Shown: positions 228-56,320 of the stretch, one piece after another
Layout of the letters: every line of letters begins with the position of its first letter
How positions within the stretch are numbered: position 1 is the stretch's first letter
Source: Spirochaetia bacterium
GTDB taxonomy: Bacteria > Spirochaetota > Spirochaetia > CADAEX01
DNA: 64,000 nt
Direction: 5' to 3'
NCBI GenBank assembly: GCA_017446885.1
Contig: JAFSOR010000009.1
Location: 102,159 to 166,158, forward strand
The notes under the pieces: model-generated
The model's database searches: none
Seen by the model: only the letters and a program-made list of their open reading frames with translations
What the model was told of the DNA's origin: nothing
Translations under genes and position numbers: made by a program

Positions 228-1793
228 TTATCCCAGAATTTTCTTCAGATCTTCCTCCGGTGTAGTAGTTGGGCCGATATTGAAGGTATCCACCAGAACT
301 TTAAGAACATTAGGTGAGACAAATGCCGGCAGTGATGGCCCCAGCAGAATGTTCTTGATTCCCAGGTGGAGCAAGGTAAGGAGTACACATACTGCTTTCT
401 GCTCATACCAGGACAGGACGATTGAGAGCGGCAGGTCATTGACACCGCAGTTGAATGCCTTTGATAGGGCTACTGCCACCTGTATTGCACTGTATGCATC
501 ATTGCATTGTCCCATATCAAGGATTCTTGGTAGACCTCCTATAGTGCCAAGGTCCAGGTCGTTGAACCGGAACTTCCCGCAAGCCAGGGTCAGAACGATA
601 GAATCAGCCGGTGTCTGCTTGACAAATTCGGTGTAATAGTTGCGGCCCGGCTTTGCACCATCGCAGCCTGCAACCAGGAAGAAATGCTTTATAGCTCCGC
701 TCTTTACACCTTCAATTACTTTGTCTGCTACAGAGAGAACAGTGTTCCGTGCAAAACCGGTCATTGTACTCTTTCCACCGTTGATTCCGGTAAACTGTGT
801 ATCCTCTTTATATCCGCCCAGTTCAAGTGCCTTGTTGATGACAGGGGTAAAGTCCTTATCCTCGCCTATGTGCACCAGTTCTGGATAGGAAACCATCTCG
901 GTGGTGAATACCCGATCTGCATAGCTTGCTCTTGGTGGCATCAGACAGTTGGTGGTGAAGATGACAGGAGCAGGGATATCGGCAAACTCTTTCTGCTGGT
1001 TCTGCCATGCGGTTCCAAAGTTGCCTTTAAGGTGTGAGTACTTCTTGAGTTCTGGATATCCATGGGCAGGAAGCATCTCGCCATGAGTATAGATATTGAT
1101 TCCTTTTTTCTCTGTCTGGATGAGGAGCTGCTTAAGGTCGTACAGGTCGTGGCCTGAGATGACGATGAAAGGTCCTTTCTCCACCATAAGTGGAACCTGT
1201 ACAGGAACAGGATGGCCGAAGCTTTCTGTATTTGCTTTATCCAGAAGTGCCATGCAGGTAAGGTTTTTTTCTCCAACCTCAAGGACTACAGGGAGCAGCT
1301 CATTAAGACCGTATGTTTCGTTTCCGATTGCTGACAATGCTTTGTAGAAGAATATCTCCATGTCATTATCCCTGTAACCGAGAACCATTGCATGGTATGC
1401 ATATGCGGCCATTCCCCGGATACCAAAAAGGATAAGTGATTTAAGAGAGCGGATATCCTCATTGCAATCCCATACCTTGTTCATATCGTATTCAGTAAAT
1501 GAGATACCTGCCTTAAAGGCTTCTCCTTTGATTTTATCGGCAAGAGCACCAATGTTATCGTTGTTGAAGTTCACATTTGTGATGGTGGTGAAAAGTCCGC
1601 TGATAATAAGTTTGGAAAGCTCTTTAGTCACCTTTGATGCATCTATGGCAGAACCGATTCCCACCATAACTCCTGTAAGTTTATCCTGAAGCTGTGCAGT
1701 ATCTGCTTTCTTTCCACATACTCCTGCCATTCCTGTGCATCCTTTGCAGAGCGCTGTCTGCTCGCACTGGAAACAAAACATTTTCTTTTCCAT
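228..1793 (-). CDS. hcp: hybrid cluster protein / hydroxylamine reductase
   Basis: 521 aa; N-terminal Cys cluster CFQCEQTALCKGC typical of Hcp; full-length ORF. Confidence 0.9.
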   Translation of the reverse strand: MEKKMFCFQCEQTALCKGCTGMAGVCGKKADTAQLQDKLTGVMVGIGSAIDASKVTKELSKLIISGLFTTITNVNFNNDNIGALADKIKGEAFKAGISFTEYDMNKVWDCNEDIRSLKSLILFGIRGMAAYAYHAMVLGYRDNDMEIFFYKALSAIGNETYGLNELLPVVLEVGEKNLTCMALLDKANTESFGHPVPVQVPLMVEKGPFIVISGHDLYDLKQLLIQTEKKGINIYTHGEMLPAHGYPELKKYSHLKGNFGTAWQNQQKEFADIPAPVIFTTNCLMPPRASYADRVFTTEMVSYPELVHIGEDKDFTPVINKALELGGYKEDTQFTGINGGKSTMTGFARNTVLSVADKVIEGVKSGAIKHFFLVAGCDGAKPGRNYYTEFVKQTPADSIVLTLACGKFRFNDLDLGTIGGLPRILDMGQCNDAYSAIQVAVALSKAFNCGVNDLPLSIVLSWYEQKAVCVLLTLLHLGIKNILLGPSLPAFVSPNVLKVLVDTFNIGPTTTPEEDLKKILG

Positions 1794-4454: not shown

Positions 4455-4565
4455 AAGATGAGTGTATCACGGCATAAAAAGAAAAAAAAGAGATTTTTTA
4501 TAACCTTAAGACTGTTGGCTTGTTTATATTTTGTGAGTATATTTTAATTATCAGGAGATAAATCA

Positions 4566-6047
4566 ATGCAGTTTAAAAGATTTTCACTTGTTCTTTTAGT
4601 TTTAATTTTCTCTGCTTCCATGATTTTTGCCTTAGGTTCTGCGGAACAGGCAAAGCCTGAAAGCGGAATCACAGAAGCTCAGCCATCCCAGGAACAGCGG
4701 GTGGCCCCCAGCTCTAAAGGCGAGCTTTTCTATTCTTTCAGCGGAATTACAAAAAAAGTTCTTCCATCTGTAGTAGAGCTTGATGTTGTTGAGGTTGTCC
4801 GTCAGGAGACCTTCAACTTCTTCAATCCGTTCGAATTCTTCTTTGGCGGCGGCCGGGGCGGAGACAATAACAATGGCAAGACCTACAAGGAATATGAGCG
4901 CCCAGGCCTTGGCTCAGGCATCATGATCAAGCAGGATGGCGACACAGTATATGTCCTTACTAACAGCCATGTTGCAGGAAAAGCAGACCAGATTACTGTA
5001 AAGCTTGCCGACGGACAGAAGTTCGATGCTACAAAAGTAGGTGCCGACGACAGGATGGACCTGGCTCTGGTATCGTTCAAGTGCTCCGACAAAGTTCCTG
5101 TTGCGACATTCGGCGATTCCGATTCCTTGGAGGTAGGCGACATTGTTCTTGCAATAGGTTCTCCTTATGGCTATGAATCTTCAGTTACAATGGGTATTGT
5201 AAGCGGTCTTAAGAGAAAGAGCACCGGGCAGATTTCTAACTACACCGACTATATCCAGACCGATGCATCCATAAACCCAGGTAACTCTGGCGGTGCCCTT
5301 GTCAACATGAAAGGCGAGGTTGTGGGAATAAACACCTGGATTGCAACCCAGAGCGGCGGCAGCATAGGACTTGGCTTTGCCATTCCATCCAACAACGCAA
5401 AACGGGTTGCCAACGACTTTATCACCAAAGGAAAGGTTGAATACGGCTGGCTTGGTGTATCTATAGACACAGTGGATGAGAACAGCTATCCGGACCTGCG
5501 CAAGGATTTAGGCCTCGGAAACAAGGGTGGTGGACTTATACTTGGTGTATTCAAGGGTTCTCCGGCAGACAAGGCAGGCATTCTCCCTGGCGACTTTATC
5601 ACCAAGATAAATGGAACTGTAATCACCGATTCTTCGCAGCTTACCAAGGTCATTGGAACTATTCCTCCTAAGGAGAAGGCATCATTCACCCTTATAAGGA
5701 ATAAGAAGGAGATGACCTTGAATGTAGTCCTCGAGGCACGTGATGATGAGGACAAGGTTCAGTCCAACCGCGACATCTATCCGGGCTTCCTTGCTATCAA
5801 TATCGACGAGAAGATGAGGACAAAGGGCGAGCTTGGCGATATCAAGGGTGTTATGATTGTGGCAGTATCGCAGGGTACAGCTGCCGAGCAGGCAAACCTT
5901 AAGGTTGGCGACATAATCCAGGAGATAAACGACAAGCCTGTAACCAACATGGCAGAGTTCTACAGTGCGCTGAATGATAAATCCAGCAAGAAGATGTTCC
6001 AGATTAGCAGAAATGGACAGAAAATAATTGTTGGATTTGTAAAATGA
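4566..6047 (+). CDS. htrA: periplasmic serine endoprotease DegP/HtrA with PDZ domains
   Basis: signal peptide; catalytic motif GNSGGALVNMKGEVVGINT; two PDZ-like C-terminal segments. Confidence 0.85.
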   Translation: MQFKRFSLVLLVLIFSASMIFALGSAEQAKPESGITEAQPSQEQRVAPSSKGELFYSFSGITKKVLPSVVELDVVEVVRQETFNFFNPFEFFFGGGRGGDNNNGKTYKEYERPGLGSGIMIKQDGDTVYVLTNSHVAGKADQITVKLADGQKFDATKVGADDRMDLALVSFKCSDKVPVATFGDSDSLEVGDIVLAIGSPYGYESSVTMGIVSGLKRKSTGQISNYTDYIQTDASINPGNSGGALVNMKGEVVGINTWIATQSGGSIGLGFAIPSNNAKRVANDFITKGKVEYGWLGVSIDTVDENSYPDLRKDLGLGNKGGGLILGVFKGSPADKAGILPGDFITKINGTVITDSSQLTKVIGTIPPKEKASFTLIRNKKEMTLNVVLEARDDEDKVQSNRDIYPGFLAINIDEKMRTKGELGDIKGVMIVAVSQGTAAEQANLKVGDIIQEINDKPVTNMAEFYSALNDKSSKKMFQISRNGQKIIVGFVK

Positions 6048-48339: not shown

Positions 48340-49356
48340 CTACTTTTTCCCTGCTTTATAAGCAAGCTGACCACAGGCTCCGGAGACTCCGAAGCCTTTT
48401 CTTTTTCTCAGGGTGTAGTTTATTCCCAGCTTGTCAAGCTTTGAGCAGAATACATTGATATCCTTGCGGTCGGGAGTCTGGAAGGGCTTTCCCTCCACTG
48501 TATTCCATGGAATAAGATTCACCAGCACCGAGAGGCCGCTTGTGAAGTGCCTCAGTGCTTTTATATCCTCGTCTCCCATATTGAAGTCTTTTATAAGCAC
48601 ATACTCGAAGGTGAAGCGCTTGTTCTTGTCCTCTTGGAACGCCTTAAGTGCCTCCTTGAGTTCTGCAAGAGGGTAGCGGGCAGTGATAGGCATTATCTGG
48701 CGCCGTTTATCCTCTATGGCACTGTTGAGCGACACCGCAAGCCTTATCTCCAGCTTGCTCTGGGCCAGGGCCTGTATGCCAGGGATAACACCGCAGGTGG
48801 ATATAGTCATCCGCCGGGCCCCAAGTCCTATTGCATTCTTGTCGTTAAGTATTGTTATTGCCTTCTTCAGGTTGTCGATGTTGTCGAAGGGTTCACCCAT
48901 CCCCATGAATACTATGTTGGAGAGCTTGCCTGCAATTCTGGAGCCTATAAGGTACTGCTCCAGTATCTCCCCGGCGGTCAGGTTCCGCTTAAAGCCCATG
49001 TCGGCAGTGCGGCAGAAGGCACAGCCCATCTTGCAGCCCAACTGGCTTGATATGCAGATAGTTTTCCTGTCGGTGCCGTCAGAAAGTATGACGCACTCGG
49101 TGAAAAGCCCGTCGGCAAGCTCAAGGCGCAGCTTGCAGTTTCCGCCATCGTCATCAAGGGCTGTATCAACTTTCATGGTAAAAAGTGAATAGTTCTGGCT
49201 TAAAGTCTGCCGCAGTGAAAGGGGCAGGTCTGTGATTGCATCAAAGCTCTCTATGCAGGAATAAAGGGCATGGTAGATCTGTTTGCTGCGGAACTTTTCC
49301 TTGACCTGGATAAGCTCCTGTATCTCGTCGGGAGTCAGTCCTAAAAGGCTTTTCAT
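48340..49356 (-). CDS. rlmN: 23S rRNA/tRNA adenine-C2 methyltransferase, radical SAM
   Basis: radical-SAM CxxxCxxC (CKMGCAFCRT), MGMGEP and downstream family-typical Cys (STCG); start placed at the internal Met (MKSLLGLTPDEIQ) to avoid overlap with hisB. Confidence 0.8.
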   Translation of the reverse strand: MKSLLGLTPDEIQELIQVKEKFRSKQIYHALYSCIESFDAITDLPLSLRQTLSQNYSLFTMKVDTALDDDGGNCKLRLELADGLFTECVILSDGTDRKTICISSQLGCKMGCAFCRTADMGFKRNLTAGEILEQYLIGSRIAGKLSNIVFMGMGEPFDNIDNLKKAITILNDKNAIGLGARRMTISTCGVIPGIQALAQSKLEIRLAVSLNSAIEDKRRQIMPITARYPLAELKEALKAFQEDKNKRFTFEYVLIKDFNMGDEDIKALRHFTSGLSVLVNLIPWNTVEGKPFQTPDRKDINVFCSKLDKLGINYTLRKRKGFGVSGACGQLAYKAGKK

Positions 49357-49360
49357 GGTA

Positions 49361-49945
49361 TCAGATAAGGCCTTTGGTGGAAAGCACCTGGTCTGAATCT
49401 GCAGCTGCATAGGACTGGGCAATTGCTTTGCCAAGAGCCTTGAAAAGGGCTTCTGCCATGTGGTGGCTGTTCTGGCCGTAACGGCAGGTGCAGTGCAGTG
49501 CTATCTGTGCTCTGTTTGAAAGGGCTATAAGGAATTCCCTTATAAGGCACATATCGAAGGTGCCGGAATAGGGCTGTGGAAAATCGGCATTAAGCACCAT
49601 GGAAGGGCGGCCGCAGATATCGATGACAGCCTCGGACACAGCCTCGTCCATAGGGATGATGGAATAGCCGTAGCGCTTGACGACACCTGCTTTCTCAGCA
49701 GACTTGGCAAGGGCATCACCCAGTACAAGACCGATGTCCTCAATCAGGTGGTGAGGGTCTACATCTATATCGCCGTCTGCCTTTATCTTAAGGGCAAAAC
49801 TGCCATGGAATGCCATTGCTGTAAGCATGTGGTTGAAGAAAGCCACAGGGGTATCAATCTCAACACCCTTTGCATCCATATCAAGAGTCAGCTTTATGTC
49901 TGTCTCCTTGGTCTTTCTCTTTAATACAACAGTACGGTTTCCCAT
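49361..49945 (-). CDS. hisB: imidazoleglycerol-phosphate dehydratase
   Basis: N-terminal RKTKETDIKLTLD and HHLIED metal-binding motifs; start at MGNRTVV rather than the longer ORF. Confidence 0.85.
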   Translation of the reverse strand: MGNRTVVLKRKTKETDIKLTLDMDAKGVEIDTPVAFFNHMLTAMAFHGSFALKIKADGDIDVDPHHLIEDIGLVLGDALAKSAEKAGVVKRYGYSIIPMDEAVSEAVIDICGRPSMVLNADFPQPYSGTFDMCLIREFLIALSNRAQIALHCTCRYGQNSHHMAEALFKALGKAIAQSYAAADSDQVLSTKGLI

Positions 49946-53105: not shown

Positions 53106-53230
53106 TATATATATCCTGACCCTCAGCTGGAAAAGATAATATATCTTATAAAATATATTGCTGTCTCTATTTATTTTTGCATTATTATATGATAATCTTT
53201 ATAATTGGAGGCATAATTATTCCAATCGAT

Positions 53231-53896
53231 ATGACAAAAATTACAAAGGAAATGGCTGCTAAAGCATTGGAGTGCAAGACAGCCGATGACCTGGTTTCCC
53301 TTGCTAAGGCCAACGGTGTCACGCTTACAAAGGAAGAGGCTGAGGCCTACTTGGCTGACCTTGAGGATGTTGAACTTGACGAGAAAGCTCTTGATAAAGT
53401 GGCAGGAGGATCCTGTTACACTCAAACGTCTTGCGATAATAATGAATGTAATCCCGCCCACCCCAAGTGCTTTACAGGCGATTCAGAGGTGGCTGTGCCT
53501 GGCGGTGTAAAGTGCATCAAGGATTTGCAGCTTGGAGACAAAGTTATTACCTTGGATGCATCTGGGAAGGAGATTGTAGGCGTGGTGACCGAAGTGGTTC
53601 CGCCGACAGAAGAGGATATTGTGGAGGTCACTTTCTCCAATGGCACACTTTGGCGGACAACCGAAAGCCAGACCCTGTATCTGGGACATGAGCAGAATTA
53701 TATGGTAAAGGATGCGAAAGGAAAGAAAGCCCTTTTACGTGATGGCGGAACTGCCACTGTGACAGATGTCAAGTTCACAGGAAAGCGGGAGACAGTATAT
53801 GACGTTCTGGTTGGCGAGGAGGAGGATGAGGATGTCATCTTCGTCTCTGGAATTGCTGCCGAAGGATATTTTACCAAGGGTGAGCGAGGACTGTAA
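53231..53896 (+). CDS. leader-peptide precursor: Nif11-like double-glycine leader (60 aa) + 19-aa Cys-rich core + C-terminal Hint (hedgehog/intein-like) domain
   Basis: leader ...ELDEKALDKVAGG; core SCYTQTSCDNNECNPAHPK; Hint block A CFTGDSEVAV, GDKV, block F-like VYDVLV...VIFVSGIAAEG; possible ATT start at 53219 at ideal SD spacing. Confidence 0.7.
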   Translation: MTKITKEMAAKALECKTADDLVSLAKANGVTLTKEEAEAYLADLEDVELDEKALDKVAGGSCYTQTSCDNNECNPAHPKCFTGDSEVAVPGGVKCIKDLQLGDKVITLDASGKEIVGVVTEVVPPTEEDIVEVTFSNGTLWRTTESQTLYLGHEQNYMVKDAKGKKALLRDGGTATVTDVKFTGKRETVYDVLVGEEEDEDVIFVSGIAAEGYFTKGERGL

Positions 53897-53914: not shown

Positions 53915-54145
53915 ATGCCTATCGATAAGACAAAAATTTCAAAGGCAATGCTTGAAAAAGCGAGAGAGTGCAAGACAGCCGATGAGCTGATGATCCGGGC
54001 AAAGGCCGAAGGTTTCATACTGACAAAAGAAGAGGCCGAGGCTTACATGGACGAGCTGGATGACATTGAACTGGACGAGAAAGCACTTGATAAAGTGGCA
54101 GGTGGAAACTGTTATACAAAGTGTGCTTTAGAAGGCCCGATGTAA
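53915..54145 (+). CDS. small Nif11-like double-glycine-leader precursor peptide, core NCYTKCALEGPM
   Basis: strong RBS GAGGAGG; leader MPIDKTKISKAML...LDEKALDKVAGG; 76 aa. Confidence 0.7.
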   Translation: MPIDKTKISKAMLEKARECKTADELMIRAKAEGFILTKEEAEAYMDELDDIELDEKALDKVAGGNCYTKCALEGPM

Positions 54146-54166: not shown

Positions 54167-54400
54167 ATGAAAATTGACAAGACAAAAATTTCAAAAGCAA
54201 TGATTGATAAAGCTTTGAAGTGCGAATCTGCTGAGGAGCTGATGGCTATTGCTAAGGCTGAGGGTCTTGAAATCACCAAAGATGAGGCAGAGGCATACAT
54301 GGCAGAGCTTGACAACATGGAACTGGACAATGCTGCTCTGGATAATGTGGCTGCTGGTTATTGTCATCGTACCACCCCATGCACGGAAGTATTTCGTTGA
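54167..54400 (+). CDS. small Nif11-like leader precursor peptide (leader ends VAAG), core YCHRTTPCTEVFR
   Basis: RBS AGGAGG; leader MKIDKTKISKAMI...LDNAALDNVAAG; 77 aa. Confidence 0.65.
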   Translation: MKIDKTKISKAMIDKALKCESAEELMAIAKAEGLEITKDEAEAYMAELDNMELDNAALDNVAAGYCHRTTPCTEVFR

Positions 54401-54451: not shown

Positions 54452-54691
54452 ATGAATACGGCAAACATCAACAAAAATGACCTGACAAAGGAACAGGTTG
54501 CTAAGGCGATGGCCTGCAAAACTGCGGAGGAACTGATGGCTCTGGCAAAATCCGAGGGCATGGAACTTACGAAAGAAGAGGCCTAGGCTTACATGGCAGA
54601 GATTGAGGACGTTGAACTTGATGAGAAAGCTCTTGATAAAGTGGCCGGCGGTGGCTGTTACTCAGATTGTAAAGCTGAAGCTTGGCTTTAA
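54452..54691 (+). pseudogene. fourth leader-peptide precursor copy with an in-frame TAG at 54584..54586 (core GCYSDCKAEAWL)
   Basis: RBS AGGAG; MNTANINKNDLTKEQVAKAMACKTAEELMALAKSEGMELTKEEA-stop-AYMAEIEDVELDEKALDKVAGGGCYSDCKAEAWL; GAG-to-TAG relative to the paralogs. Confidence 0.55.
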
Positions 54692-54705: not shown

Positions 54706-54813
54706 ATACCGATTGATAAATCAAAAATCACCACAGAGATGATCGAGAGGGCCAAGCAGTGCGAGAATGCCGATGAACTGGTGGCTCTTGCCAAAAAAAG
54801 GAGAACAATATGA
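54706..54813 (+). pseudogene. fifth leader copy remnant: start codon ATA, leader truncated after ...ELVALAKK, runs into the next gene's RBS
   Basis: translation IPIDKSKITTEMIERAKQCENADELVALAKKRRTI aligns with the N-termini of copies 1-3. Confidence 0.4.
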
Positions 54814-55202
54814 AGTCAGTATATGAATTCATAAAGAAGTGCGGTGTATATTACCTGGCCACAGTGGAAGGGGACCAGCCCCGGGTGAGGCCATTCGGCA
54901 CTATAAATATCTTCGAGGGAAAGCTCTATATCCAGACAGGGAAGGTGAAGCCCGTATCCAAGCAGATTGCTGCTGATCCGAAGGTGGAGCTCTCATGTTT
55001 TGACGGCGCTACATGGTTAAGGCTTTCCGGCACACTGGTCAACGACGACCGTATTGAGCCTAAGATTGATATGCTTGTGCATTTCCCTGAGCTCAAATCT
55101 ATCTATGCAGCTGACGATGACAACACCCAGGTGCTCTATTTCAAGGATGCCAAGGCTGTGTTCTCCACCTTCACAGCACCACCAAAAGTAGTAGAGTTCT
55201 AA
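54810..55202 (+). CDS. pyridoxamine-5'-phosphate-oxidase-family (split-barrel FMN-binding) protein
   Basis: 130 aa; PNPOx-like pattern (VYYLATVEGDQPRVRPF...). Confidence 0.55.
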   Translation: MKSVYEFIKKCGVYYLATVEGDQPRVRPFGTINIFEGKLYIQTGKVKPVSKQIAADPKVELSCFDGATWLRLSGTLVNDDRIEPKIDMLVHFPELKSIYAADDDNTQVLYFKDAKAVFSTFTAPPKVVEF

Positions 55203-56320
55203 ACCAGTTTTGCAATATCCTGGCAGCAGCGCTCTATCACATGCCGGGCAGGAGGGAAAGTATCTATCTGCCTGCTCATGTAGCTGATGATGCGCACACA
55301 GCCTAAAAGCTGGGCCTTTTGTGCTGTCTCCTTAAGTATTGCCTGGTCTTCGGTGCCCAGATACAGCCTTAGGCTTTTATCCCAGATGTAGCTGGCAGTC
55401 TTAACAGAAATGCCTAAGAAGGCGGCAGCGTTGGGGTCTATGTCCGGGAACTCCTTGTAGGAGTTGTACAGTGTTGCCAGCTCGAAGATGGGGTCTCCTG
55501 TGCATATTGTGTCCATATCTATGAGCATAGGCTCGCCGTCGCAGATCAGGAAGTTCTTCAGGTGAGTGTCGGCATGGAGCAGGCTTAGGCTGTCCGGCAC
55601 ATCGTTTATGGCCTTTATAAGCTTTCCATATATCTCCTGGGAGAAATAATCTTTTATTCCCTGGGCCCAGGATAGGGTTTTTTCCTTCATGTCAGGCAGT
55701 TCCCCGGGCTTCATCTGGATCGAATGGATCTGCTTTATCAGAACCACCGATTTTTCTATGAAGTCATCCAGCTCCTTCTGTCCACGATTCACATATTCCG
55801 ATGACATTTCTGCATTTATAAGCTCGAAGACTGCGCCGTACTGGTCGCCTACCATGACTATGTCGTAGGGGATGGCGGTGGGAACCCCTTTGACAAAGGC
55901 CTTCCGGGAAAGCTCCCGCTCCCTGTCCACCGTCTCCATTGCAGTCCCTTTGTTGTAGACCTTCACAATGGTGTCCGGTGCGATGCGGTATACTGCGCCA
56001 TGGGCACCCCGTCCCAGCTCCCTGCATCCCTCTATGCTTATCTTCCTCAGGGCCTTCTGCACCTTGAGGATCTCCACAAACCCGGTCATGTCGAATATCT
56101 CGTAGACAGCGGGCTGGGCGTTGATCACCTGCACATCTTTGTATTTCTGTGCCAGGCGGAGGAGGATACGGAGTCCTGCGCTGGATATGTATTCAAGCTT
56201 CTCTGCGTCAAGGACAATGGTGCCGGGAATCCCGCTGCCTACAGCCTGCAGTATCTCCTTTTCCCACTGGGCTGAGTTTGTGCTGTCTATATGGCCGGAA
56301 AGGGGGATGGTCTTTGTCAT
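55199..56320 (-). CDS. STAS-domain fused to an aminoglycoside-phosphotransferase/choline-kinase-like kinase
   Basis: N-terminal ~100 aa STAS-like; Brenner-type catalytic loop HADTHLKNFL and metal-binding IDMD. Confidence 0.55.
   Translation of the reverse strand: MTKTIPLSGHIDSTNSAQWEKEILQAVGSGIPGTIVLDAEKLEYISSAGLRILLRLAQKYKDVQVINAQPAVYEIFDMTGFVEILKVQKALRKISIEGCRELGRGAHGAVYRIAPDTIVKVYNKGTAMETVDRERELSRKAFVKGVPTAIPYDIVMVGDQYGAVFELINAEMSSEYVNRGQKELDDFIEKSVVLIKQIHSIQMKPGELPDMKEKTLSWAQGIKDYFSQEIYGKLIKAINDVPDSLSLLHADTHLKNFLICDGEPMLIDMDTICTGDPIFELATLYNSYKEFPDIDPNAAAFLGISVKTASYIWDKSLRLYLGTEDQAILKETAQKAQLLGCVRIISYMSRQIDTFPPARHVIERCCQDIAKLV

Follow-up and report, generated by a model that had tools for sequence, protein, structure and literature searches.

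A Nif11-type leader, a hypervariable core and a terminal Hint domain combined in one putative peptide precursor of rumen bacteria

The window analysed here, 64,000 nt of a Spirochaetia bacterium genome (GenBank assembly GCA_017446885.1, contig JAFSOR010000009.1, positions 102,159–166,158 of the forward strand), contains an open reading frame (orf; 53177..53896, forward strand, 239 aa counted from a TTG codon) made up of three modules: a Nif11-like double-glycine leader, a short Cys-containing core and a C-terminal Hint (hedgehog/intein-like) domain. The fusion is read, with a probability of about 0.55, as a precursor of the ribosomally produced and post-translationally modified peptide (RiPP) or bacteriocin type that carries its Hint domain as a self-removing C-terminal follower, the default last step being hydrolysis or thiolysis. 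Hint domains of this kind are known; what appears to be new is the recruitment of a terminal Hint domain of the bacterial intein-like (BIL)/Hog type onto leader-directed peptide precursors. The orf had been singled out in an earlier reading of the sequence alone, and its coordinates and content (leader, GG motif, 19-aa core and 142-aa Hint segment) were reproduced on re-reading.

The terminal domain is a genuine Hint domain. It matches Pfam Hint_2 (PF13403; E=5e-8, 33.9 bits, 35.0 for the domain alone) above the gathering threshold of 28.4 and over profile positions 2–145 of 147, and falls just under the 29.7-bit cutoff of the Hedgehog module Hint (PF01079; E=1e-6, 29.0 bits, profile positions 12–92 of 213). 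Matches to PT-HINT (PF07591; E=0.002–0.007, 17.1–19.1 bits against a cutoff of 27.7) and to Intein_splicing are weak. A profile of alignment A2 compared with PDB sequences identified the gp41-1 intein (E=1.9e-15), Tetrahymena BIL2 chains (1.3e-13), a C. thermocellum BIL (1.2e-12) and Hedgehog 1AT0 (2.9e-7). The AlphaFold2 model of residues 72–221 (pLDDT 88.6, pTM 0.84), built from a more diverse alignment, superseded a mediocre full-length model (pLDDT 61.8) in which the core segment is disordered. Foldseek comparison of this model with the PDB returned Hint-fold proteins exclusively (probability 1.00), with query-normalised TM scores of 0.71–0.78 (Ssp DnaB intein and BIL2 of Tetrahymena BUBL1, both 0.78; C. 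thermocellum BIL, 0.77; gp41-1 intein, 0.74; Hedgehog 1AT0, 0.71). Both the profile search and the structure prediction suggested in the sequence-only reading thus return the proposed domain, the former above cutoff.

Full-length homologues were collected by a word-indexed search of 5.8 billion proteins, which gave 208; family counts here and below are taken from the best 120 of these. Cys-Phe opens the Hint domain in 120 of the 120. In alignment A1, Cys80, Phe81, Asp84, Thr144, Ser146, Gln147, His153, Tyr190, Asp191, Glu211 and Gly212 are invariant, while in alignment A2 (25–70% identity) invariance is confined to Cys1, the block-B Thr and the block-F Asp. At its C-terminal end, alignment A2 sets …GVLCHNY, in a relative that keeps the intein-type His-Asn, against …GIAAEGY. 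The +1 position is Tyr or Phe in the clade (Tyr in the window), the window protein ends nine residues later, and the tail following the Hint domain is variable (2, 10 or 36 aa). Replacement of His-Asn by Glu-Gly, Tyr or Phe at +1 and the variable tail exclude splicing and C-terminal cleavage, and on these motifs the domain would process at most its own N-terminal junction. Alignment with the His-Asn-keeping relative agrees with the earlier description of a block-F-like VYDV end lacking both His-Asn and a C-extein, and with a Hog/BIL-type arrangement, the Hint domain being terminal and devoid of His-Asn and of a C-extein nucleophile.

Support for the leader comes mainly from the family. The window copy matches TIGR03798 (leader_Nif11) at E=1e-5 and 25.6 bits, below the cutoff of 32.3, and the same model matches 21 of 21 aligned homologues at E≤1e-3 (best E 2e-13), which supports the Nif11-type assignment made from the sequence alone, although the window copy itself is sub-cutoff. 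The JGI annotation of homologue P0060 carries the Nif11-like leader name, and the fusion leader is 55–70% identical to, and colinear with, the leaders of three downstream genes. A58, G59 and G60 of the VAGG motif are invariant in alignment A1, and a short variable core follows. Across the family there are 41 distinct cores of 10–22 aa, belonging to about ten unrelated sequence types, nearly all containing Cys; core length and the residue at −1 to the Hint domain vary freely. The short Cys-rich core proposed earlier is borne out, at a position that proves to be hypervariable. The core motif xCYTxxC is common to the fusion and to adjacent precursors without a Hint domain.

The 120 best homologues are 67–100% identical to the window protein over 88–100% of the query, have precomputed Hint/Hint_2 matches and show the same colinear architecture. 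An identical protein (P0001) is found on at least four contigs, the longest of 564 kb, with the same neighbours in two independent metagenome assemblies. Ratios of nonsynonymous to synonymous substitution (dN/dS; Nei-Gojobori method on codon alignments) are 0.04–0.18 for the Hint domain, with dS up to saturation, and 0.10–0.29 for the leader (0.64 in one Selenomonad pair). Wherever the core type differs, dN in the core runs from 0.8 up to saturation, amounting to wholesale replacement between relatives. Purifying selection on the Hint part is thus strong, and the core is hypervariable; a constrained leader and Hint domain around such a core is the pattern expected of a product lying between two processing modules.

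In the favoured scheme, the hypervariable Cys-containing core would be the likely product, preceded by a Nif11-like leader whose double-glycine site is of the type cut by C39-peptidase ATP-binding cassette (ABC) exporters. Cys80 would attack the carbonyl of Lys79 in an N-to-S acyl shift, assisted by Thr144, Gln147 (in place of the usual His) and Asp191, and the thioester would be resolved by a nucleophile, by default water or a small thiol. This would detach the 15-kDa Hint domain, a cis-acting, self-removing follower or protecting domain, and leave leader-core or core alone with a C-terminus defined at Lys79. The leader would be cut at Gly-Gly, presumably by a C39 exporter, and the CY..C motif, common to the Hint-less neighbours, is possibly modified by a radical S-adenosylmethionine (radical-SAM) enzyme.

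Candidate maturases are found in related loci. In eight of these, from both major lineages, a radical-SAM/SPASM enzyme (505–575 aa; L005 2955–4472 and L011 11414–13102, for example) adjoins the fusion, together with further Nif11-leader peptides. Thioether cross-links made by a SPASM radical-SAM enzyme define the sactipeptide/ranthipeptide class. The SPASM enzymes are nearest to TIGR04463, CefB, Clo7bot and PapB (thioether-forming maturases), all far below cutoffs, and locus L011 additionally encodes a RiPP C-methyltransferase (TIGR03975, 460 bits against a cutoff of 282). Gene order in the Selenomonad loci is fusion, SCYTECPLDGPM peptide, radical-SAM gene. A PTP-like phytase gene (PF14566) always lies directly 5′ of the fusion in Selenomonad loci L001, L002, L008, L009, L011, L013 and L026. 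In a Spirochaetia cluster (L005), DUF7005 (PF22541) genes (769..1587 and 4476..5342) flank the precursor and SPASM radical-SAM genes, with genes for an outer-membrane efflux protein and for a SPASM-containing protein of 534 aa downstream; all of these are possibly further cluster components. A distant member, P0132 (L032), has a Hint domain 45% identical to that of the window and a genuine Nif11 leader, and lies directly 3′ of an operon encoding two membrane fusion proteins, a Peptidase_C39 ABC transporter, a second ABC transporter and an extracytoplasmic function sigma factor. Judged from gene order, this is the one case in which the context directly supports export of these fusions by a C39 transporter. 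The contigs of other distant double-glycine-leader/Hint members are mostly too short or show a housekeeping context, leaving L032 as the only informative one. Spirochaete variants (L005 1941..2708, L006, L010, L012, L014, L015) have a conserved 36-aa extension following the Hint domain, e.g. ELLKKARECKTADEVMSLAKANGITITKEEAELYIA and stop. This extension corresponds to the N-terminal half of a Nif11-like leader; it seems to have arisen when a deletion fused the gene to the following leader gene, and to have been kept in frame from then on. Protein P0076 (L023 10001..10699), a common variant with the core SCWSNTTCDENECNPAHPK, is an orphan in a mobile/defence island whose genes include those for Cas2, a D5_N primase, a KAP NTPase, a WYL protein and an AbrB-type antitoxin. 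Neither maturases nor further leader peptides were found near it.

A scan of one genome per species located 20 loci, in metagenome-assembled genomes (MAGs) from the rumen or fore-stomach and in one Selenomonas ruminantium isolate. Intact full-length fusions (~67–74% identity) occur in Selenomonadaceae/Schwartzia and Spirochaetia/Spirochaetaceae MAGs, and one Spirochaetia MAG (RGIG6743) has at least five fusion genes with differing cores on three contigs. Treponema and Elusimicrobia MAGs contain in-frame deletion derivatives exclusively (L018 1178..1495; L019 553..869), in which the leader runs straight into the C-terminal half of Hint and the GG motif, core and Cys1 are missing; these are probably dead copies. 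In an Acidaminococcaceae MAG and the S. ruminantium isolate the match is limited to a fragment of the C-terminal part of the Hint domain. The spread across phyla points to horizontal transfer. A survey of related spirochaete genomes for the same fusion had been suggested from the sequence alone: the fusion does recur in spirochaetes, but the family is not specific to them and crosses phyla among rumen bacteria.

A search with the Hint domain only, against 1.84 billion cluster representatives, gave 152 proteins at E≤1e-3. In the nearer relatives Hint is always the last element of the protein, ending in …AAEG[YF][SG][DE] with about two residues to spare, and at the level of 50%-identity clusters the clade terminates three kinds of protein. 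The first comprises at least 12 further clusters in which a double-glycine leader (ending, for example, …ELETVAGG, …ELDAVAGGG or …ELDEVTGG) is followed by 17–79 residues and then Cys-Phe; the residues preceding Hint are often amphipathic and cationic (VGKWLLEKIF, ILKAITKYLKS, WAKTLGKIAKWFRGFH). The second consists of N/Q/Y-rich proteins of 330–1230 aa with a conserved junction, …MYSGRMGTGSTTTT..WGAVGSLGSA.. directly before CF, and no Pfam domain other than Hint was found in them. Proteins of this kind (P0137, P0142, P0144, P0148, P0152 and P0155–P0169 among others) have a conserved N-terminus, EYDAYMRPV..LGHC.FKGGG. A phage origin of the N/Q-rich Hint proteins was considered and rejected: there was no INPHARED match and a weak match to phrog_21587 (function unknown), and the many phage Hint proteins in BFVD matched at the fold level only. 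The third kind are coiled-coil or giant adhesin-like proteins. These include WP_014431132.1, a 5140-aa ‘leukotoxin LktA family filamentous adhesin’ encoded on plasmid pSRC1 of S. ruminantium TAM6421, a genome sequenced to completion (NC_017078.1 95752..111174; L034; compare P0123), which ends …KQS followed by CFTADSPV…GIAAEGYFTRGERGLS and stop and is 70% identical to the window Hint over the whole domain, the GEEEDEDV insert and YFTRGERGLS tail being part of that identity. In S. ruminantium ATCC 12561, a mere remnant of the C-terminal half of Hint follows the giant orf (L017 10097..10261).

Several observations count against the fusion being a self-processing RiPP precursor. Block B does not conform to T-x-x-H: it reads TESQ, with Thr144 retained and Gln147 at the position of a His that is normally catalytically critical. 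This Gln is at least 90% conserved within the clade and aligns with the His of TPEH in the His-Asn-keeping relative and of SEEH in gp41-1. Of the catalytic residues that the sequence-only reading had proposed to locate, Cys1, the block-B Thr and the Asp were found, but the block-B His is replaced. With the canonical His missing, the Hint domain may or may not be active. That Cys1, Thr and Asp are strictly conserved in three unrelated N-terminal contexts speaks for catalysis having been retained, and loss of the block-B His is compensable in inteins (PMC6333167). The same Hint module also ends adhesins and N/Q-rich proteins, so that its role would be generic and not RiPP-specific, and many copies of the fusion are orphans amid housekeeping or mobile-element genes. 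By tblastn, no homologues of the relatives’ SPASM and B12 radical-SAM enzymes were found in the 64-kb window, and no ABC/C39 transporter signature was found in the window or in loci L001–L031. Export of a 161-aa cargo including a folded Hint domain by a peptidase-containing ABC transporter would be unusual. Finally, homologues start with MPID, and the corresponding window codon is ATT (53219–53221), with a well-spaced GGAGG upstream; the ancestral ATG start of the window fusion gene thus appears to have been lost. With this change, and a pseudogene and a gene remnant in the same array, the window copy may be poorly expressed.

The fusion gene is the first of a tandem array of paralogous Nif11-leader genes (Table 1). 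Besides the ATT at 53219, start candidates are ATG 53231 and ATG 53189, the latter being the choice of gene callers and lacking a Shine-Dalgarno motif. A promoter-like sequence precedes the gene, but seven such sites occur in the region against 3.9 expected by chance, which gives no evidence of function. Precursor 2 is orthologous to the SCYTECPLDGPM peptide that comes after the fusion gene in Selenomonad loci, and L002 has a core, YCHRTSPCKEVFR, similar to that of precursor 3. The in-frame TAG of precursor 4 is also present in independent assemblies (L021, L022), identifying a real pseudogene and not a sequencing error. Upstream of the array lie genes for a Vut_1 transporter, an O-methyltransferase and a carboxylesterase, and downstream of it those for a PNPOx-like protein, a STAS-APH kinase, MutL and HydF; the large orfs of the window are housekeeping genes. 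The kinase gene (55199..56320, reverse strand), directly upstream of mutL, encodes a 373-aa protein that combines a STAS domain at its N-terminus with an APH-type phosphotransferase. The one radical-SAM gene near the array (48343–49434, reverse strand) was considered as a maturase and rejected, as it is rlmN.

Table 1 Features of the fusion gene and of the adjoining leader-peptide array in the window.
Feature	Coordinates	Strand	Basis
Nif11-like double-glycine leader, start uncertain	53219..53410	+	TIGR03798 match; colinearity with downstream leaders
V-A-G-G at leader end (residues 57–60)	53399–53410	+	sequence
Core peptide SCYTQTSCDNNECNPAHPK (19 aa, 3 Cys)	53411..53467	+	sequence
Cys80 codon (Hint residue 1, predicted nucleophile); predicted scissile bond Lys79-Cys80	53468..53470	+	
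Hint domain, 142 aa (53468–53893) plus stop (53894–53896), C-terminal-most element	53468..53896	+	
Block B equivalent, T144-E-S-Q147	53660..53671	+	alignment with TPEH relative and gp41-1 SEEH
Block F, Tyr190-Asp191 (VYD motif)	53798..53803	+	alignment
Glu211-Gly212 at the position of the intein terminal His-Asn, then YFTKGERGL and stop	53861..53866	+	alignment A2
Promoter-like TTTGCA-18-TATAAT (weak evidence)	53176..53205	+	consensus scan, 10/12 matches
GGAGG, Shine-Dalgarno-like motif	53207..53211	+	7 nt 5′ of ATT 53219, 19 nt 5′ of ATG 53231
Precursor 2, Nif11 leader, no Hint domain, core NCYTKCALEGPM	53915..54145	+	TIGR03798, E=7e-6
Precursor 3, leader end AAG, core YCHRTTPCTEVFR	54167..54400	+	TIGR03798, E=1.5e-5
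Precursor 4, pseudogene, would end GG followed by GCYSDCKAEAWL	54452..54691	+	in-frame TAG 54584–54586, GAG in paralogues
Fifth-leader remnant, IPIDKSKITTEMIERAKQCENADELVALAKK...	54706..54811	+	ATA start; cut by start of PNPOx-like gene at 54810

With a fusion gene and a second peptide gene but no radical-SAM gene in third place, the array looks like a truncated version of a Selenomonad-type cluster. It is possible, if not the favoured view, that the window locus is the decaying remnant of a horizontally acquired RiPP cluster and has perhaps no function in its host, an explanation that concerns the window copy and not the family. The absence of maturase and exporter within 64 kb, the nonsense codon in gene 4, the truncation of gene 5 and the ATT in place of the ancestral start all fit such decay, as do the deletion derivatives elsewhere (L018, L019) and the order of fusion and xCYTxCxLxGPM peptide, which matches that of the Selenomonad clusters, where radical-SAM genes come next. 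The family moreover crosses phyla at ~70% identity, and the fusion gene may be conserved merely through recent acquisition. On the other hand, the fusion orf is intact, as are genes 2 and 3; the closest relatives of the window gene (86–95% identity) retain the full orf and the family is under purifying selection. Nif11-type precursors are also commonly encoded far from their enzymes, as in prochlorosin-type systems. The window copy may depend on genes located outside the window, or it may be in the process of being lost.

A sub-case of the self-removing follower, identical up to its final step, would have the Hint thioester captured productively once the leader is removed, making Hint a built-in, single-turnover enzyme for C-terminal activation; this is considered unlikely. 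Attack by the N-terminal amine of the core would give a head-to-tail macrocycle (macrolactam), attack by a core Cys or Lys a thiolactone or lactam, and transfer to an external amine, sulfide, lipid or cell-wall component is also conceivable. Such chemistry has precedents: BIL2 of BUBL1, the closest structural match, makes a thioester of the C-terminus of an upstream small domain and transfers it to Lys amines (PMC8616854), and cholesterol esterification by Hedgehog follows the same chemistry (PMC7765530). Cys at position 2–5 in nearly all cores of the close family would provide an internal nucleophile, and the presence of the module on very different secreted or surface proteins fits generic activation of a C-terminus. 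However, there is no acceptor-binding region comparable to the sterol-recognition region of Hedgehog, as the protein ends 2–10 residues past Hint, and neither the −1 residue nor core length is constrained; the sequences contain nothing that would require such an outcome. CY..C is also found in the neighbouring peptides that lack Hint, so that the core Cys are more likely maturase targets or disulfide partners.

Quite unlikely is a catalytically inactive Hint domain that is itself the functional part, whether in binding, docking, a chaperone-like role or as a recognition handle for the radical-SAM maturase, with the core reduced to a linker. The change of the block-B His to Gln, loss of the terminal His-Asn, the status of Hint as the most conserved part of the protein and the many copies without processing genes nearby would be consistent with this. 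Catalytic residues would not be needed by a mere binding domain, however, and Cys1, exactly where the fold begins, is invariant among relatives as distant as 25% identity and in three unrelated N-terminal contexts; Thr and Asp are invariant too. The core also resembles those of adjacent Hint-less precursors (xCYTxxC). That the fusion arose by misassembly, by a frameshift joining two unrelated genes (the risk raised in the sequence-only reading) or as a chance orf has practically no probability given the identical orf in independent assemblies, the 208 homologues and dN/dS values well below 1 in both domains flanking the junction.

If the Hint domain is active, the self-removing follower would make the fusion a natural RiPP precursor that carries its own C-terminal autoprocessing or activating domain; to our knowledge, C-terminal follower removal and macrocyclisation of RiPPs are otherwise carried out by separate proteases. 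Hint_2/BIL domains have been catalogued, but their function is poorly understood, and the family would give a terminal bacterial Hint domain a concrete role. Should capture of the thioester prove true, it would represent a new maturation route for peptide natural products, a natural counterpart of intein-mediated cyclisation and ligation, and would parallel, in bacteria, the cholesteroylation of Hedgehog and the conjugation carried out by BUBL. In terms of enzymology, an active domain would show an N-S acyl shift with Gln in place of the block-B His. At ~220 aa, and with 41 natural cores, the fusions are small, tractable objects, possibly also of use as a small Hint tag that cleaves at its N-terminus by nature and accepts many different −1 residues. 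Ecologically, rumen bacteria of several phyla share the module, which has also passed between peptides and giant adhesins. A Hint domain on a Nif11 or double-glycine precursor was not found described, nor any paper combining ‘Nif11’ with ‘Hint domain’ or ‘intein’, in the literature searched, which covered subscription journals thinly; within that literature, the earlier remark that the architecture is not known from RiPP, bacteriocin or polymorphic-toxin work stands.

Among known systems, profile matches and motifs place the domain nearest to B-type BIL/Hint_2 domains, and its arrangement nearest to Hog. With the former, which have been described mainly from alpha-proteobacteria, it shares the Hint fold, a Cys at the position of the nucleophile and the absence of a C-terminal His-Asn, and apparently N-terminal intein motifs; autocleavage at the N-terminus would be the chemistry to expect. 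B-type BILs lack the intein C-terminal motif and still have their N-terminus cleaved, and are found in variable regions of non-conserved secreted bacterial proteins (PMC7765530). On these features, the window domain agrees in the absent C-terminal motif and the variable context and lacks the block-B His. Unlike B-type BILs, Hint domains of the window type are strictly terminal (AAEG[YF] plus 2–10 residues), have Gln in block B and follow a leader-directed peptide of 10–22 aa, where the N-extein of a B-type BIL is a large protein. The likeness to Hedgehog lies in a C-terminal Hint domain on the precursor of a secreted protein, predicted processing confined to the N-terminal junction via a Cys thioester, and a putative active product in the N-terminal part. 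The differences are the lack of a sterol-recognition region beyond the Hint fold and of a block-B His, the sub-cutoff PF01079 match, the bacterial host and the double-glycine leader in place of a Sec signal.

BIL2 of Tetrahymena BUBL1 (PDB 6TMM/6Y75) is the best structural match (E=3e-9) at 18% sequence identity, but it keeps His69 and a terminal Asn, is eukaryotic and has ubiquitin-like domains on both sides. PT-HINT (A-type BIL) is a Hint autopeptidase of secreted bacterial conflict proteins (PMC3482391) that, unlike the domain considered here, sits ahead of a toxin domain at the C-terminus, has retained His-Asn and sets free the downstream part. A pretoxin-HINT polymorphic toxin was rejected, as no toxin lies downstream, the PF07591 match is sub-cutoff and the 36-aa spirochaete extension is a truncated Nif11-like domain. 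A class 1 intein or splicing element was likewise rejected on the lack of His-Asn and of Cys, Ser or Thr at +1, the terminal position and the absence of a host protein to restore.

Nif11-leader RiPP precursors (TIGR03798; prochlorosin-type and radical-SAM-modified) share with the fusion a Nif11-like leader, the GG motif and tandem hypervariable paralogues, and related loci encode maturases; described members of that group are not known to have a folded autoprocessing domain after the core, and the window lacks both maturase and exporter. The S. ruminantium adhesin WP_014431132.1 ends in the same Hint domain, but its N-extein is a protein of ~5000 aa instead of a leader peptide. The cyanobactin enzyme PatG and the amatoxin enzyme POPB remove a follower via an acyl intermediate at the last core residue, from which an acid, an adduct or a macrocycle can result. 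Both are trans-acting serine proteases, and the IMPACT and SICLOPPS intein tags are man-made; by analogy only, the activating module of the fusion described here would be natural and act in cis.

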